Origin: Escherichia coli
GTDB taxonomy: Bacteria > Pseudomonadota > Gammaproteobacteria > Enterobacterales > Enterobacteriaceae
DNA: 64,000 nt
Assembly: GCF_013122565.1 (NCBI RefSeq)
Contig: NZ_CP053258.1
Strand: one strand, 5' to 3'
Both the position numbers and the translations under genes were made by a program. The notes below the pieces were generated by a model. That model made no database searches and was not told where the DNA came from. It saw nothing but the letters and a program-made list of their open reading frames with translations. Below, one piece after another: positions 26,311 to 45,540 of this stretch. Positions within the stretch are counted from its first letter, which is position 1; every line of letters begins with the position of its first letter.

Positions 26311-27669
<1,359 letters not shown>

Positions 27670-27695
27670 TTAATTAACTGATGATGAGCCTGGAT

Positions 27696-27732
27696 TTCCG
27701 CTCTCACTGAATTTTTATGCAAAATAAATGAG
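27696..27732 (-). promoter_or_regulatory. Candidate ARG boxes (ArgR operator) upstream of argG
   Basis: Two adjacent TGAAT/ATTCA-like palindromic 18-mers (TGAATTTTTATGCA, TAAATGAGTTTTCATT) 40-80 bp upstream of argG start. Confidence 0.4.
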
Positions 27733-27879
27733 TTTTCATTTAATCATCTTTTATCGGAGACAGGAAGAGTTTAGTGTGTTTTTTGTAAAATAATGCGCTT
27801 AAGGGAGAGCAGGAGAAGGCAAAAGTATTCAACAAATGAAAGTGAACTGGATATTCATTCACGTGATTAGCAATAAACG

Positions 27880-27909
27880 TTGACAAAATGTGGCATGGAT
27901 CACTATAAT
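27880..27909 (+). promoter_or_regulatory. Sigma-70 promoter upstream of metY operon
   Basis: TTGACA (27880-27885), 18-bp spacer, TATAAT (27904-27909). Confidence 0.55.
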
Positions 27910-28001
27910 GCCTGCAGATTTTACGTCCCGTCTCGGTACACCAAATCCCAGCAGTATTTGCATTTTTTACCCAAAACGAGTAGAATTTGCCACGTTTCAG
28001 G

Positions 28002-28078
<77 letters not shown>

Positions 28079-28200
28079 CTTTCCCTTAGAGTCCTTTTTC
28101 AAATATACTGTGAAGACTTCGGCCTTCGTAGTGGGATTTGAAAAAATCCTTCTGGAAAGTGCTCCAGACCGCAGTTGCGGTTATAGGGTTCAGTTATATA

Positions 28201-28226
28201 AAGCCCCGATTTATCGGGGTTTTTTG
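28201..28226 (+). terminator. First terminator/attenuator between metY and rimP
   Basis: AAGCCCCGATTTATCGGGGTTTTTTG. Confidence 0.75.
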
Positions 28227-28247
28227 TTATCTGACTACAGAATAACT

Positions 28248-28268
28248 GGGCTTTAGGCCCTTTTTTTA
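28248..28268 (+). terminator. Second terminator/attenuator between metY and rimP
   Basis: GGGCTTTAGGCCCTTTTTTT. Confidence 0.65.
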
Positions 28269-28284
28269 TGTCTTGGGGGTGGGC

Positions 28285-28737
28285 TTGTCCACATTAGAGC
28301 AAAAATTAACAGAGATGATTACTGCGCCAGTTGAGGCCCTGGGTTTTGAACTGGTTGGCATCGAATTTATTCGCGGTCGCACATCCACACTGCGCATCTA
28401 TATTGATAGTGAAGATGGCATCAATGTTGATGATTGTGCTGATGTGAGCCACCAGGTAAGTGCTGTGCTGGATGTTGAAGATCCCATCACCGTTGCTTAT
28501 AACCTGGAAGTCTCCTCACCGGGTCTCGATCGCCCACTGTTCACGGCTGAACACTACGCCCGTTTTGTCGGAGAAGAGGTGACTCTGGTTCTCCGTATGG
28601 CGGTACAAAACCGTCGTAAATGGCAGGGCGTTATCAAAGCGGTAGACGGTGAAATGATCACAGTTACCGTCGAAGGTAAAGATGAAGTGTTCGCGCTGAG
28701 TAATATCCAGAAGGCGAACCTGGTTCCCCACTTTTAA
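28285..28737 (+). CDS. rimP: Ribosome maturation factor RimP
   Basis: ORF 28273..28737; TTG at 28285 gives (M)[24 protein letters not shown]. Confidence 0.88.
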
Positions 28738-28764
28738 TAGTCTGGATGAGGTGAAAAGCCCGCG

Positions 28765-30252
<1,488 letters not shown>

Positions 30253-30276
30253 TAAACTGTAGCAGGAAGGAACAGC

Positions 30277-32949
30277 ATGACAGATGTAACGATTAAAACG
30301 CTGGCCGCAGAGCGACAGACCTCCGTGGAACGCCTGGTACAGCAATTTGCTGATGCAGGTATCCGGAAGTCTGCTGACGACTCTGTGTCTGCACAAGAGA
30401 AACAGACTTTGATTGACCACCTGAATCAGAAAAATTCAGGCCCGGACAAATTGACGCTGCAACGTAAAACACGCAGCACCCTTAACATTCCAGGTACCGG
30501 TGGAAAAAGCAAATCGGTACAAATCGAAGTCCGCAAGAAACGCACCTTTGTGAAACGCGATCCGCAAGAGGCTGAACGCCTTGCAGCGGAAGAGCAAGCG
30601 CAGCGTGAAGCGGAAGAGCAAGCCCGTCGTGAGGCAGAAGAATCGGCTAAACGCGAGGCGCAACAAAAAGCTGAACGTGAGGCCGCAGAACAAGCTAAGC
30701 GTGAAGCTGCTGAACAAGCGAAACGTGAAGCTGCGGAAAAAGACAAAGTGAGCAATCAACAAGACGATATGACTAAAAACGCCCAGGCTGAAAAAGCCCG
30801 CCGTGAGCAGGAAGCTGCAGAGCTCAAGCGTAAAGCCGAAGAAGAAGCGCGTCGTAAACTCGAAGAAGAAGCACGTCGCGTTGCTGAAGAAGCACGTCGT
30901 ATGGCGGAAGAAAACAAATGGACTGATAACGCGGAACCGACTGAAGATTCCAGCGATTATCACGTCACTACTTCTCAACATGCTCGCCAGGCAGAAGACG
31001 AAAGCGATCGTGAAGTCGAAGGCGGCCGTGGCCGTGGTCGTAACGCGAAAGCAGCGCGTCCGAAGAAAGGCAACAAACACGCTGAATCAAAAGCTGATCG
31101 TGAAGAAGCACGCGCAGCAGTACGTGGCGGTAAAGGCGGAAAACGTAAAGGTTCTTCGCTGCAGCAAGGCTTCCAGAAGCCAGCTCAGGCCGTTAACCGT
31201 GACGTTGTGATCGGCGAAACTATCACCGTTGGCGAACTGGCGAACAAGATGGCGGTTAAAGGCTCTCAGGTCATCAAAGCGATGATGAAACTGGGCGCAA
31301 TGGCAACCATCAACCAGGTTATCGATCAGGAAACCGCACAGCTGGTTGCTGAAGAGATGGGCCACAAAGTTATCCTGCGTCGTGAAAACGAGCTGGAAGA
31401 GGCGGTAATGAGCGACCGTGACACGGGTGCTGCGGCTGAACCGCGCGCGCCGGTTGTGACCATCATGGGTCACGTTGACCACGGTAAAACCTCTCTGCTG
31501 GACTACATTCGTTCAACGAAAGTGGCCTCTGGCGAAGCGGGCGGCATTACCCAGCACATTGGTGCATACCACGTTGAAACTGAAAACGGCATGATCACCT
31601 TCCTGGACACCCCGGGGCACGCCGCGTTTACTTCAATGCGTGCACGTGGTGCGCAGGCAACGGACATCGTAGTCCTGGTTGTTGCTGCCGACGACGGCGT
31701 AATGCCGCAGACCATCGAAGCAATCCAGCACGCGAAAGCGGCGCAGGTACCGGTGGTGGTTGCAGTGAACAAGATCGATAAACCAGAAGCCGATCCGGAT
31801 CGTGTTAAGAACGAACTCTCCCAGTATGGCATCCTGCCGGAAGAGTGGGGTGGTGAAAGCCAGTTCGTACACGTATCTGCGAAAGCGGGTACCGGCATCG
31901 ATGAACTGCTGGACGCTATCCTGCTGCAGGCGGAAGTTCTGGAGCTGAAAGCGGTACGTAAAGGTATGGCGAGCGGTGCGGTTATCGAATCCTTCCTCGA
32001 TAAAGGTCGTGGTCCGGTTGCTACCGTTCTGGTACGTGAAGGTACTCTGCACAAGGGCGATATCGTTCTGTGTGGCTTCGAATACGGTCGTGTTCGTGCG
32101 ATGCGTAACGAACTGGGTCAGGAAGTGCTGGAAGCGGGTCCGTCCATTCCGGTGGAAATCCTCGGCCTGTCCGGCGTTCCGGCTGCGGGTGATGAAGTTA
32201 CCGTTGTACGTGACGAGAAGAAAGCGCGTGAAGTTGCACTCTATCGTCAGGGTAAATTCCGCGAAGTTAAACTGGCGCGTCAGCAGAAATCTAAACTCGA
32301 GAACATGTTTGCCAACATGACCGAAGGCGAAGTTCACGAAGTGAATATCGTCCTGAAGGCAGACGTACAGGGTTCTGTGGAAGCGATCTCCGACTCCTTG
32401 CTGAAACTGTCTACTGACGAAGTTAAAGTGAAGATCATCGGTTCTGGCGTAGGTGGTATCACCGAAACCGACGCCACCCTGGCTGCGGCGTCCAACGCCA
32501 TCCTGGTTGGCTTCAACGTACGTGCTGATGCCTCTGCACGTAAAGTGATTGAAGCGGAAAGCCTGGATCTGCGTTACTACTCCGTCATCTATAACCTGAT
32601 CGACGAAGTGAAAGCGGCGATGAGCGGTATGCTGTCTCCGGAACTGAAACAGCAGATTATCGGTCTGGCGGAAGTTCGTGACGTGTTCAAATCGCCGAAA
32701 TTTGGTGCCATCGCAGGCTGTATGGTTACCGAAGGTGTGGTTAAACGTCACAACCCGATCCGCGTTCTGCGTGACAACGTGGTTATCTATGAAGGCGAGC
32801 TGGAGTCCCTGCGCCGCTTCAAAGATGACGTTAACGAAGTCCGTAACGGTATGGAATGTGGTATCGGCGTTAAGAACTACAACGACGTCCGCACTGGCGA
32901 TGTGATCGAAGTATTCGAAATCATCGAGATCCAACGTACCATCGCTTAA
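30277..32949 (+). CDS. infB: Translation initiation factor IF-2
   Basis: 890 aa ORF; charged repeat N-terminal region, G-domain [12 protein letters not shown] / DTPGH / NKID. Confidence 0.97.
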
Positions 32950-32966
32950 GGTTTTTAGGGTTCCAT

Positions 32967-33036
32967 GCGGGATAAGGCGTTTACGCCGCATCCGGCATGG
33001 ATTGCATGATGCGACGCTGGCGCGTCTTATCAGGCC
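32967..33036. repeat. REP palindromes in infB-rbfA intergenic region
   Basis: GCGGGATAAGGCGTTTACGCCGCATCCGGCA and GATGCGACGCTGGCGCGTCTTATCAGGCC. Confidence 0.75.
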
Positions 33037-33074
33037 AACGTGAACAGCCCTTCCACCTGAAATTAATTTTTAAA

Positions 33075-33097
33075 AAGGGGCTAACAGCCCCTTTTTT
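33075..33097 (+). terminator. Hairpin plus T-run upstream of rbfA (attenuator)
   Basis: AAGGGGCTAACAGCCCCTTTTTT. Confidence 0.65.
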
Positions 33098-33113
33098 GTC
33101 AGGAGAATTTATT

Positions 33114-33515
33114 ATGGCGAAAGAATTTGGTCGCCCGCAGCGCGTAGCGCAGGAAATGCAAAAAGAGATCGCTCTCATCCTGCAGCGTGAAATTAAAGAT
33201 CCTCGCCTGGGCATGATGACCACCGTTTCCGGTGTCGAAATGTCTCGCGACCTGGCGTATGCCAAAGTATATGTGACGTTCCTCAACGACAAAGATGAAG
33301 ACGCGGTTAAAGCGGGCATCAAAGCGTTGCAGGAAGCTTCTGGTTTCATCCGCAGCCTGCTGGGTAAAGCGATGCGCCTGCGTATCGTGCCGGAACTGAC
33401 CTTCTTCTACGACAACTCTCTGGTTGAAGGGATGCGTATGTCAAACCTGGTGACCAGCGTGGTCAAACATGACGAAGAACGTCGTGTTAACCCGGACGAC
33501 AGCAAGGAGGACTAA
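33114..33515 (+). CDS. rbfA: Ribosome-binding factor A
   Basis: ORF 32997..33515 trimmed to ATG 33114 ([26 protein letters not shown]). Confidence 0.94.
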
Positions 33516-34459
33516 TGAGTCGTCCTCGTCGTCGCGGTCGCGACATTAACGGCGTTTTGTTGCTGGATAAACCGCAGGGTATGTCCAGCAACGATGCGCT
33601 GCAAAAAGTGAAACGGATTTATAACGCCAACCGTGCCGGGCATACCGGTGCGCTGGACCCGCTGGCGACCGGCATGTTGCCGATTTGCCTCGGGGAAGCG
33701 ACGAAGTTTTCCCAGTATCTGCTGGACTCCGACAAACGCTATCGGGTCATTGCGCGTCTTGGACAGCGTACCGATACTTCTGACGCCGACGGACAAATCG
33801 TTGAAGAGCGTCCGGTAACCTTTAGTGCAGAACAACTGGCGGCGGCACTGGATACTTTCCGTGGCGATATCGAACAGATCCCATCGATGTATTCAGCACT
33901 GAAATACCAGGGCAAAAAACTGTACGAATATGCGCGTCAGGGCATTGAAGTTCCGCGTGAAGCGCGTCCGATTACCGTTTATGAATTGCTGTTTATTCGC
34001 CATGAAGGCAATGAGCTGGAGCTGGAAATTCACTGCTCAAAAGGCACTTATATCCGCACTATCATTGACGACCTGGGTGAGAAACTCGGCTGTGGCGCGC
34101 ATGTTATTTACCTGCGCCGTCTGGCGGTAAGTAAATATCCGGTTGAACGGATGGTGACCCTGGAACATCTGCGTGAACTGGTCGAACAAGCCGAACAGCA
34201 GGATATTCCAGCTGCGGAGTTACTTGATCCATTACTGATGCCAATGGACAGTCCAGCTTCGGACTATCCGGTGGTGAATCTTCCGTTAACGTCTTCTGTT
34301 TACTTCAAAAATGGTAACCCGGTTCGTACATCTGGCGCGCCGCTGGAAGGACTGGTTCGCGTCACGGAAGGTGAGTACGGCAAATTTATCGGTATGGGCG
34401 AAATTGACGATGAAGGCCGCGTTGCGCCTCGTCGTCTGGTGGTTGAATACCCGGCGTAA
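33515..34459 (+). CDS. truB: tRNA pseudouridine-55 synthase
   Basis: 314 aa ORF; catalytic Asp motif [15 protein letters not shown] overlaps rbfA stop. Confidence 0.97.
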
Positions 34460-34511
34460 TGTTAACCGTCTTGCGATAACAGGTCGCTACGAGTAGAATA
34501 CTGCCGCTTAA

Positions 34512-34877
<366 letters not shown>

Positions 34878-34894
34878 TTCTTGCGAGTTTCAGA

Positions 34895-34921
34895 AAAGGG
34901 GGCCTGAGTGGCCCCTTTTTT
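34895..34921. terminator. rpsO terminator, palindromic with U-runs on both strands
   Basis: AAAAGGGGGCCTGAGTGGCCCCTTTTTT. Confidence 0.8.
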
Positions 34922-35068
34922 CAAGCTGACGGCAGCAATTAACTGGAAACTAATGTATTGTTGCTATGAATGATCTTCCGTTGCAGAGGTTCGCGCGGCT
35001 AATGAGAGGCTTTACCCACATAGAGCTGGGTTAGGGTTGTCATTAGTCGCGAGGATGCGCAGAAGATC
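34895..35068 (-). ncRNA. sraG: SraG-type small RNA antisense to the pnp leader (bounds approximate, by position)
   Basis: Known position of SraG in the rpsO-pnp intergenic region on the opposite strand; the palindromic rpsO terminator supplies a minus-strand 3' end; no independent sequence proof of 5' end. Confidence 0.3.
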
Positions 35069-35123
35069 GGGTATTAACACCAGTGCCGTAAGGTACTGTC
35101 TAAGAAAGAGAAAGGATATTACA

Positions 35124-37259
35124 TTGCTTAATCCGATCGTTCGTAAATTCCAGTACGGCCAACACACCGTGACTCTGGAAACCGGCATGATGGCTCGTCA
35201 GGCTACTGCCGCTGTTATGGTTAGCATGGATGACACCGCGGTATTTGTTACCGTTGTTGGCCAGAAAAAAGCCAAACCAGGTCAGGACTTCTTCCCACTG
35301 ACCGTTAACTATCAGGAGCGTACCTACGCTGCTGGTCGTATCCCGGGTAGCTTCTTCCGTCGTGAAGGCCGCCCAAGCGAAGGCGAAACCCTGATCGCGC
35401 GTCTGATTGACCGCCCGATTCGCCCGCTGTTCCCGGAAGGCTTCGTCAACGAAGTTCAGGTTATCGCCACCGTGGTTTCTGTTAACCCGCAAGTTAACCC
35501 GGATATCGTCGCGATGATTGGTGCTTCCGCAGCACTGTCTCTGTCTGGTATTCCGTTCAATGGTCCGATTGGTGCTGCCCGCGTAGGTTACATCAATGAC
35601 CAGTACGTACTGAACCCGACTCAGGACGAGCTGAAAGAGAGCAAACTGGATCTGGTTGTTGCCGGTACTGAAGCCGCTGTACTGATGGTTGAATCTGAAG
35701 CTGAACTGCTGAGCGAAGACCAGATGCTGGGCGCAGTAGTGTTCGGTCATGAACAACAGCAGGTTGTTATTCAGAACATCAATGAACTGGTGAAAGAAGC
35801 CGGTAAACCGCGTTGGGACTGGCAGCCGGAGCCGGTAAACGAAGCGCTGAACGCGCGCGTTGCTGCACTGGCTGAAGCTCGTCTGAGCGATGCTTACCGC
35901 ATCACCGACAAACAAGAGCGTTATGCGCAGGTTGATGTCATCAAATCTGAAACCATCGCGACGCTGCTTGCTGAAGACGAAACCCTGGACGAAAACGAAC
36001 TGGGTGAAATTCTGCACGCTATCGAGAAAAACGTTGTTCGTAGCCGCGTACTGGCAGGCGAACCGCGTATCGACGGTCGTGAAAAAGATATGATCCGTGG
36101 TCTGGATGTGCGTACTGGTGTGCTGCCGCGTACTCACGGTTCTGCGCTGTTCACCCGTGGTGAAACGCAGGCGCTGGTTACCGCAACGCTGGGTACTGCT
36201 CGTGACGCGCAGGTTCTTGATGAACTGATGGGCGAACGTACCGATACCTTCCTGTTCCACTACAACTTCCCTCCGTACTCCGTAGGCGAAACCGGCATGG
36301 TCGGTTCTCCGAAGCGTCGTGAAATTGGTCACGGTCGTCTGGCGAAGCGCGGCGTGCTGGCAGTCATGCCGGATATGGACAAATTCCCGTACACCGTACG
36401 TGTTGTGTCTGAAATCACTGAATCCAACGGTTCCTCTTCTATGGCTTCCGTGTGCGGTGCGTCTCTGGCGCTGATGGACGCAGGTGTGCCAATCAAAGCT
36501 GCCGTTGCGGGTATCGCAATGGGTCTGGTGAAAGAAGGCGACAACTACGTTGTACTGTCTGACATTTTGGGCGACGAAGATCACCTGGGCGATATGGACT
36601 TCAAAGTTGCAGGTTCCCGCGACGGTATCTCTGCACTGCAGATGGATATCAAAATTGAAGGTATCACCAAAGAGATCATGCAGGTTGCACTGAACCAGGC
36701 TAAAGGTGCGCGTCTGCACATCCTGGGTGTAATGGAACAGGCGATCAACGCGCCGCGTGGCGATATCTCTGAGTTCGCACCGCGTATCCATACCATCAAG
36801 ATCAACCCGGACAAGATCAAAGATGTTATCGGTAAAGGCGGCTCTGTTATCCGTGCCCTGACCGAAGAAACCGGCACCACCATCGAAATCGAAGATGACG
36901 GTACTGTGAAGATCGCAGCGACCGACGGCGAGAAGGCGAAAAACGCTATTCGTCGTATCGAAGAGATCACTGCAGAAATTGAAGTGGGCCGCGTCTACAC
37001 TGGTAAAGTGACCCGTATCGTTGACTTTGGCGCATTTGTTGCCATCGGCGGCGGTAAAGAAGGTCTGGTACACATCTCTCAAATCGCTGACAAACGCGTT
37101 GAGAAAGTGACCGATTACCTGCAGATGGGTCAGGAAGTACCGGTGAAAGTTCTGGAAGTTGATCGCCAGGGCCGTATCCGTCTGAGCATTAAAGAAGCGA
37201 CTGAGCAGTCTCAACCTGCTGCAGCACCGGAAGCTCCGGCTGCTGAACAGGGCGAGTAA
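35124..37259 (+). CDS. pnp: Polynucleotide phosphorylase
   Basis: ORF 35037..37259 trimmed to TTG 35124 ((M)[20 protein letters not shown]), 711 aa; two RNase PH domains, KH and S1. Confidence 0.95.
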
Positions 37260-45015: not shown

Positions 45016-45540
45016 GTGTTGGATAAACTGCGTTCCCGTATTGTGCATTTGGGGCCATCTCTGTTGAGTGTACCGGTAAAACTGACGCCATTTGCGCTAA
45101 AACGCCAGGTTCTTGAGCAGGTCTTAAGCTGGCAATTCCGCCAGGCGCTGGATGATGGCGAGCTGGAGTTTCTTGAAGGCCGCTGGTTAAGTATTCATGT
45201 GCGTGATATTGACCTGCAATGGTTTACCTCGGTGGTGAATGGCAAACTGGTGGTCAGCCAGAACGCGCAAGCTGATGTGAGTTTTAGTGCCGACGCCAGC
45301 GATCTGCTGATGATTGCGGCGCGTAAACAAGATCCGGATACGCTCTTCTTCCAGCGTCGGCTGGTGATTGAAGGCGATACGGAGCTGGGGCTGTATGTGA
45401 AAAACCTGATGGACGCCATTGAACTGGAGCAAATGCCGAAAGCCTTACGCATGATGCTGCTGCAACTGGCGGATTTTGTTGAGGCGGGAATGAAAACCGC
45501 GCCTGAAACCAAACAGACATCGGTAGGTGAACCATGCTAA
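45016..45540 (+). CDS. ubiT: SCP2-domain protein UbiT
   Basis: ORF 44992..45540; GTG at 45016 gives (M)LDKLRSRIVHLGPSLLSVPVKL; divergent from ubiUV. Confidence 0.85.
   Translation: MLDKLRSRIVHLGPSLLSVPVKLTPFALKRQVLEQVLSWQFRQALDDGELEFLEGRWLSIHVRDIDLQWFTSVVNGKLVVSQNAQADVSFSADASDLLMIAARKQDPDTLFFQRRLVIEGDTELGLYVKNLMDAIELEQMPKALRMMLLQLADFVEAGMKTAPETKQTSVGEPC

Follow-up and report, generated by a model that had tools for sequence, protein, structure and literature searches.

Organization of the locus

The window, that is the whole stretch of 64,000 nucleotides of the Escherichia coli contig NZ_CP053258.1 (assembly GCF_013122565.1) that was analysed, encodes on its plus strand the initiator tRNA-Met(CAU), tRNA-fMet, gene metY (28002..28078), recognized by ARAGORN, by the Rfam tRNA model (61 bits) and by RefSeq as tRNA-Met, which is followed by rimP (28285..28737; TTG start, 150 aa), nusA (28765..30252) and infB (30277..32949), the latter two annotated with ATG starts. 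On the other side of this leader region argG is located on the minus strand (26311-27654). The sequence leading up to rimP is, with high probability, the metY-rimP-nusA-infB operon leader of E. coli. Several E. coli O145 chromosomes share positions 27700-28800 with 100% identity, and of 5426 complete E. coli genomes 5425 match this region at 95% identity or more. The metY gene of the window strain carries G46 (tRNA-fMet1-type) and metY of K-12 is the A46 allele; apart from this allele, the leader is the same in both strains, with the same Rfam score.

A perfect sigma-70 consensus, TTGACA-18-TATAAT (27880..27909, plus strand; 12/12 match), is found 5' of metY and is probably the published distal promoter P-1, and a promoter-like TTTGCA-18-TAGAAT just 5' of the tRNA (27957..27986, plus strand; 9/12 match) is probably P0, both assignments following the published layout of the metY operon, which according to PMC6511841 comprises P-1 and P0 upstream of metY, P2 downstream of it and two RNase III sites. 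Downstream of the tRNA gene, a long imperfect hairpin (28095..28146, plus strand; predicted stem -16.5 kcal/mol) harbours an RNase III site, as the published site at K-12 position 3318176 translates, with the K-12 positions of rimP and metY as reference, to window position 28115. TATACT in the 5' arm of this hairpin (28104-28109, plus strand) would be the -10 element of the internal promoter P2, with a transcript start near 28117. The rimP 5' UTR fusion of Adams 2021 has its primer, and thereby its 5' UTR, begin at 28117, which agrees with the report that RNase III cleavage gives a transcript resembling the P2 one. Since P-1, P0 and P2 as well as the 5' end produced by processing are situated upstream of the two terminators t1 and t2, every transcript must cross both of them.

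Terminators t1 and t2

Two structures consisting of a hairpin and a U-run lie between metY and rimP, as had been proposed in the first-pass annotation with boundaries (28201-28226 and 28248-28268) that are right within 1-3 nt. Terminator t1 (28200..28225, plus strand) is a 10-bp hairpin with a GCCCCGA/UCGGGG core, AAAGCCCCGA-UUUA-UCGGGGUUUU at 28200-28223, with a U6 run at 28220-28225; five of its ten pairs are G-C, and its energy of -15 kcal/mol (z -4.9) was equalled by 0/200 shuffled sequences. Terminator t2 (28248..28267, plus strand), the general 'rimP-leader' motif, consists of the GGGC/GCCC hairpin GGGCU-UUA-GGCCC at 28248-28260, with 5 bp of which 4 are G-C, and of U7 at 28261-28267. 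By itself t2 is weak (-7.4 kcal/mol, z -1.4), with 16/200 shuffles as good; its status comes from conservation, not from stability. Both structures fit the anatomy of intrinsic terminators, a G+C-rich stem-loop directly before a U-run, and a terminator scan of 27600-28800 returned 4 sites, including t1 and t2, versus 1.0 +/- 1.1 in shuffles.

Family membership was assessed by an Rfam scan of 27000-37000, in which RF01770, the 'Gammaproteobacteria rimP leader', matched 28167-28267 over model positions 1-102 of 102 with 102.0 bits (gathering threshold 47 bits) and an E value of 4.2e-17; both hairpins align to the consensus structure of the family, and rimP, nusA and infB are encoded directly downstream. 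The GGGc..gCCC terminator before rimP has been called 'the most ubiquitous transcription attenuator' by Naville and Gautheret 2010 (PMC2965389), who noted the conservation of rimP-leader terminators at the sequence level, observed in several Gammaproteobacteria that a further terminator, bearing the inverse motif CCCg..cGGG, stands in tandem upstream, and proposed NusA as the factor that recognizes the rimP-leader terminator. In the operon literature, as summarized by Brandi et al. 2019 (PMC6511841), t1 and t2 are the names of these same two terminators 'upstream of rimP'. The claim of tandem attenuator terminators before rimP is thus supported by the RF01770 match and by the published t1/t2 (PMC6511841, PMC2965389). 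Terminators t1/t2, the RF01770 family and the TTG start in RefSeq are all already recorded; the finding is correct but ordinary.

Conservation of the leader

The rimP loci of 80 Enterobacteriaceae species, of 8 further Enterobacterales genera (Yersinia, Serratia, Xenorhabdus, Photorhabdus, Edwardsiella, Dickeya, Sodalis and Tatumella) and of 4 distant Gammaproteobacteria (52-58% RimP identity) were compared, with 67 distinct Enterobacteriaceae leaders entering the leader alignment. Across these 67 leaders t1 is 99.4% paired, with pair-preserving changes that are one-sided only, and the GGGC/GCCC core of t2 (four G-C pairs) is invariant together with the U-run in 67/67, the fifth pair of t2 (U-G) being restricted to E. 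coli and close relatives. The 67-leader alignment contains no covariation for t1 or t2; since the stems are invariant, conservation of structure and sequence-specific recognition are not separable from this alignment. The t2 motif is present in 12/12 of the more distant loci, that is in the 8 Enterobacterales genera and the 4 distant Gammaproteobacteria. RF01770 scores amount to 84-103 bits in K-12 and the 8 other Enterobacterales genera and to 35-41 bits, below threshold, in 2 of the 4 distant loci; by eye, 4/4 of these distant loci show two hairpins in tandem, each with a U-run, first one of the CCCC/GGGG type and then one of the GGGC/GCCC type, the latter 20-29 nt before the start.

In these genomes, the part of the leader 5' of about position 28185 has diverged strongly. 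A small hairpin located there, ACCGC-AGUU-GCGGU (28168..28181, plus strand), shows compensatory changes, with 4 of 5 pairs changing on both sides and 98.8% of the cells of the 67-leader alignment paired; it is part of the RF01770 match, yet unpaired in the Rfam consensus structure. Directly 5' of t1, invariant alignment columns define a nearly invariant AGGGUUCAGUUAU block (28185..28197, plus strand), retained as AGGGUCCAGU in the 8 other Enterobacterales genera.

Alternative folds and other candidate elements

A 12-bp helix of 28186-28197 with 28242-28253 would mask the 5' arm of t2 and is part of the E. coli minimum-energy fold, the fold with this anti-t2 helix having -38.4 kcal/mol versus -28.9 kcal/mol for t1 plus t2. 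The helix is 96.6% paired in Enterobacteriaceae, with one compensatory event only, and its outer part is lost in Yersinia and Mixta; in the RNAalifold consensus of 16 Enterobacterales, t1 plus t2 is preferred to the anti-t2 helix. Further downstream, pairing of the 3' arm and U-run of t2 with GGGGGUGGGC would sequester the Shine-Dalgarno sequence of rimP; this helix occurs in one minimum-energy fold, has a pair probability of 0.14 once downstream sequence is added and offers no variation to assess. Preferred there is a small GUGG/CCAC hairpin that shows the UUG in its loop, likewise with no variation to assess.

Other types of elements were sought and rejected. The boxA-like sequence TGCTCTTTAACAA has no match with up to 3 mismatches in 27900-28300, and 17 matches versus 17.5 expected over the whole window, which argues against a boxA/nut-type antitermination site in the leader. 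A candidate leader peptide from ATG 28268 to TAG 28297 (MSWGWACPH) is out of frame with rimP, is without a Shine-Dalgarno sequence and has its ATG changed to ACG or ATT in 5/67 leaders. The Rfam matches to the antisense sRNA STnc430 on the minus strand (26.6 bits versus a threshold of 47, E 0.83) and to a fragment of RsmY (19 bits) are at chance level.

The start codon of rimP

The TTG at 28285-28287, 17 nt past the second U-run, is the RefSeq start of rimP in the identical O145 genome (WP_001300397.1) and in K-12 (NP_417639.6), agrees with the open reading frame check and yields the same 150 residues as E. coli RimP in PDB (7AFI, chain X, and others). Four nt before the TTG, the Shine-Dalgarno sequence GGGGGU (28275..28280, plus strand; GGAGGU in two species, loci L045 and L054) is predicted to pair with the 16S 3' tail at -9.7 kcal/mol. 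TTG is kept in 80/80 Enterobacteriaceae and 8/8 other Enterobacterales loci (88/88). Two of the 4 distant loci are called at TTG, one at GTG and one at an ATG 12 nt upstream, the last of which still has a TTG at the aligned position, with GGAG 6 nt ahead of this codon. Synonymous variation begins directly after the TTG, with synonymous changes observed from the third codon onward, and PDB homologues align from residue 6-9. A literature search for the N-terminal RimP peptide (STLEQKL) returned no entry, with no N-terminal or ribosome-profiling evidence for the TTG found, and a search for rimP together with UUG/TTG gave nothing relevant.

Three alternative starts, GTG 28279 (152 aa), TTG 28273 (154 aa) and ATG 28315 (140 aa), are in frame without an intervening stop; homologue lengths vary with the gene caller from 142 to 219 aa, including a 152-aa GTG call in Yersinia and Serratia records, and GTG 28279 is conserved in all loci. 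Their pairing with the 16S tail, however, amounts to -2.1 to -4.3 kcal/mol. GTG 28279 overlaps the Shine-Dalgarno sequence, and the codon between it and TTG 28285 varies among Gly, Ala and Asp, a pattern that suits a spacer or non-coding sequence; TTG 28273 is located 5' of the Shine-Dalgarno sequence and is CTG in 5 species; and ATG 28315 has no Shine-Dalgarno sequence (-2.1 kcal/mol) and would drop residues that align with solved homologues. With TTG 28285 used alike by RefSeq, K-12 and PDB, a start at one of these other codons is very unlikely. The start that we infer, TTG 28285, is very well supported, and the non-AUG start proposed earlier on for rimP agrees with RefSeq, with the geometry of the Shine-Dalgarno sequence and with conservation.

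Non-AUG starts had also been said to recur in the window. Indeed, pnp (35124..37259, plus strand; 711 aa) starts with TTG and ubiT (45016..45540, plus strand; 174 aa) with GTG, both with the length of the annotated RefSeq protein; the UUG initiation codon of pnp has been shown by toeprinting (PMC5029454), and ubiT has the Shine-Dalgarno sequence GGGAG (-7.7 kcal/mol) 7 nt upstream. Among the 19 annotated coding sequences from argG to yhbP, however, the start codon is ATG in 16, TTG in 2 and GTG in 1, and these 3/19 non-AUG starts (16%) match the E. coli background of 83% AUG, 14% GUG and 3% UUG, so that enrichment is ruled out. While the two additional starts match the annotation, their recurrence carries no signal.

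The region surrounding the rimP start is itself conspicuous. The approximately 43 nt of 28257-28299, GCCC-U7-AUGUCUUGGGGGUGGGC-UUG-UCCACAUUAGA, which extend from the 3' arm of t2 through the U-run, the Shine-Dalgarno sequence and the UUG into codon 5, are almost invariant in the 80 Enterobacteriaceae species (67 aligned leaders) and identical in the 8 other Enterobacterales genera, and this invariance includes the four-fold-degenerate codon position 28290. A non-AUG start (UUG; GUG in one locus) persists in Gammaproteobacteria with RimP 52-58% identical.

Read coverage across the leader in vivo

In the DirectRNA-seq data of Adams 2021 (supplementary file 2), K-12 position 3318065 on the minus strand corresponds to window position 28226, the base after the U-run of t1. 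Among the positions up to 800 nt away in either direction, it is the one at which bicyclomycin has its most significant effect (Rho score 2.97, p 1.3e-38). Upstream and downstream 800-nt flanks collected 4269 and 196 reads, respectively, in untreated cells and 3527 and 481 reads with bicyclomycin; the downstream/upstream read ratio at 28226 thus rises from 4.6% to 13.6% with bicyclomycin, where the drop in coverage overstates termination, since the upstream 800 nt take in the abundant tRNA. DirectRNA-seq nonetheless puts the break in coverage at t1, and the response to bicyclomycin may point to a further layer that is Rho-linked or indirect. The published data searched contained no 3'-end data for t2. 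In the same study, expression of the fusion comprising the rimP 5' UTR and open reading frame was lower, not higher, in the rhoR66S mutant.

Control of read-through into the operon

The arrangement of the leader suggests the following course of events. Transcription would begin upstream of the tRNA gene, at P-1 or P0, or within the RNase III hairpin, at P2, and RNase III cleavage near 28115 frees the tRNA and destabilizes the downstream mRNA. Before rimP, RNA polymerase would encounter two intrinsic terminators in series, t1 with its strong hairpin and U6 and subsequently the very short t2 with U7, at which most polymerases would stop, so that the transcription unit of the tRNA would end there as well. 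The levels of RimP, NusA and IF2 would be set by the fraction of polymerases that continue, with the read-through mRNA presumably translated from UUG 28285 via the GGGGGU Shine-Dalgarno sequence. NusA most likely promotes termination at t1/t2, above all at the weak t2, which would establish a negative feedback loop. By analogy with the leader of Bacillus subtilis, NusA may act directly at E. coli t1 or t2; the literature searched, with the primary papers of 1984-1989 and 2000 outside it, contained no report of such direct action. Termination would be divided between t1 and t2, and the weak 4-bp stem of t2 is consistent with a factor-assisted terminator. According to PMC6511841, transcripts of the operon are increased in mutants with reduced NusA-dependent termination. 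The same paper disputes a Csp-mediated antitermination at the leader that has been claimed in the literature. The layered control of read-through that the first-pass annotation had read from the arrangement is borne out by the literature, the layers being repression by NusA, RNase III cleavage, the contested Csp antitermination and a bicyclomycin-sensitive component.

Alternatively, the hairpins might mainly end the metY tRNA unit, with 3'-end formation and protection of the tRNA precursor or leader RNA as their function and read-through as a fixed leak without conditional control. The hairpins follow directly on a tRNA gene with very strong promoter matches, read coverage is down approximately 20-fold across t1, Northern patterns before and after cold shock display no new read-through species (PMC6511841), and no conserved antiterminator is demonstrable. 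On the other hand, P2 and the 5' end made by RNase III are located after the tRNA and before t1/t2, so that mRNA-only transcripts also meet the terminators, and in Trabulsiella guamensis (locus L014) the tRNA is largely deleted with the leader intact. Moreover, the t2 motif precedes rimP in bacteria without a tRNA at this place, such as Firmicutes (PMC2965389), and expression of the operon changes with the level of NusA; we consider a function confined to the tRNA unit unlikely. Less probable still is that Rho causes or assists a substantial share of the stop in the leader, instead of termination being purely intrinsic. The top Rho score within +/-800 nt, 2.97, does fall on the end of the t1 U-run, with the read ratio going up upon addition of bicyclomycin (Adams 2021), but both t1 and t2 are canonical hairpin-plus-U-run structures, the rimP 5' UTR and open reading frame fusion goes down, not up, in rhoR66S, and effects of bicyclomycin are widely indirect, for example through the availability of NusA and NusG. 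That the hairpins are functionless chance inverted repeats has a practically negligible probability. Taken alone, t2 is no better than shuffled sequence, but the Rfam E value of 4e-17, structures that are invariant across the order and present in distant Gammaproteobacteria, the published functional naming and the in vivo read coverage at t1 all speak for function, and conservation already refutes a chance origin. Attenuation at t1 and t2 that governs read-through into rimP-nusA-infB is the reading we retain.

This leader would set the supply of three core factors, RimP for ribosome assembly, NusA for transcription and IF2 for initiation, and represents a classic case of a termination factor that probably controls its own synthesis via terminators. 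The invariance of 28257-28299 might in addition indicate an extra, undescribed layer of control in the rimP initiation region, either an operator bound by a protein or the ribosome or a start codon kept deliberately weak, a proposal drawn from the alignments that we regard as improbable. The invariance could simply reflect stacked constraints from the terminator, the Shine-Dalgarno sequence and the N-terminal codons. If such a layer did exist, the weak codon could adjust the amount of RimP against that of NusA and IF2, and translation of rimP could be sensitive to the supply of initiation factor or initiator tRNA, in an operon that encodes initiator tRNA and IF2.

Comparison with known systems

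Compared to RF01770, the window presents the same locus and the same two hairpins with U-runs, bearing the CCCg..cGGG and then the GGGc..gCCC signature, with no substantial difference. Likewise, t1/t2 of the E. coli metY-nusA-infB operon and the pair in the window are identical elements with the same placement after P-1, P0, P2 and the RNase III sites (PMC6511841). The leader of the neighbouring rpsO-pnp operon, situated in the same window, is alike in that a leader hairpin is cleaved by RNase III, termination is partial and the start codon is UUG; it is unlike in that autoregulation is exerted by PNPase after RNase III cleavage and not by a termination factor, and in that one terminator follows rpsO, with no tandem. 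As summarized in PMC12288461, the B. subtilis nusA (ylxS/rimP) leader resembles the window in having a weak GGGC/GCCC-type terminator before rimP-nusA and feedback by a product of the operon, and differs in that it has a single terminator, without an upstream tRNA gene or RNase III hairpin. Stimulation of termination by NusA in the B. subtilis nusA leader was shown by Mondal et al. 2016, as recounted in PMC12288461; such direct dependence on NusA is thus established for the B. subtilis leader, but putative for t1/t2 of E. coli.

Results and discussion

The stretch from which rimP translation starts (28257-28299), comprising the 3' arm of the second terminator t2 (28248-28267), U7, AUGUCUU, the GGGGGUGGGC Shine-Dalgarno sequence and the UUG start codon at 28285 up to codon 5, is nearly invariant across 80 Enterobacteriaceae species and has the same sequence in all eight other Enterobacterales genera compared. 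This conservation extends to the third base of codon 2 (28290), a four-fold-degenerate site that is fixed, while the leader 5' of approximately 28185 has, unlike this stretch, strongly diverged in the same genomes. A nine-codon mini-ORF overlaps the rimP start in another frame (28268-28297); it is probably not functional, since its ATG is replaced by ACG or ATT in 5 of 67 distinct aligned Enterobacteriaceae leaders.

In the homologue match list, the called lengths of near-identical RimP orthologues range from 142 to 219 aa, and many of the gene calls run upstream across the terminators, which points to a widespread misannotation of the rimP start site, to be attributed to the non-AUG start codon.

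Further upstream, a small hairpin, ACCGC-AGUU-GCGGU (28168-28181), shows compensatory changes in four of its five pairs among the 67 leaders and lies within the match to RF01770, the Rfam 'Gammaproteobacteria rimP leader' (28167-28267), yet the consensus structure of that family leaves it unpaired. A predicted long-range helix of 12 bp, GGGUUCAGUUAU (28186-28197) with AUAACUGGGCUU (28242-28253), would surround the first terminator t1 (28200-28225) and mask the t2 5' arm. The minimum-energy fold of the E. coli leader includes this helix, which is 96.6% paired in Enterobacteriaceae; the Enterobacteriaceae leaders show no covariation in it, and the order-wide RNAalifold consensus does not contain it.

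At the end of the t1 U-run (window 28226, K-12 3318065), published DirectRNA-seq gives a Rho score of 2.97, that is, a tripling of read-through under bicyclomycin, while a rimP fusion decreased in a rho mutant despite this rise (Adams et al., 2021). The Rho-linked effect falls on a terminator which looks intrinsic.

Other RNAs of the window exceed their own Rfam gathering thresholds in all three cases: the S15 leader (34550-34664, plus strand, 118 bits), the sRNA SraG (34894-35065, minus strand, 160 bits), which lies antisense in the rpsO-pnp interval, and naRNA4 (32966-33036, plus strand, 70.5 bits, threshold 59.5) directly past infB.

Trabulsiella guamensis (L014, 870-1000) has lost most of the metY tRNA gene, with only the 3' end ...GGCCCCCGCAACCA left; downstream of this remnant the leader is intact, with its RNase III stem, both terminators (t1 and t2) and the TTG start codon. 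Enterobacterales outside Enterobacteriaceae (L084-L091 and L094, bases 1-400) show the order secG, tRNA-Leu(GAG), metY, whereas in E. coli the divergent argG is located directly upstream of metY. The metY of the window (28002-28078) reads ...CCCGAAGGTCGTCGG..., with G46 (position 28047) as in tRNA-fMet1, whereas K-12 metY carries A46 (tRNA-fMet2) according to the probe sequence in PMC6511841; judged by this base, the strain is of a non-K-12 type at metY.
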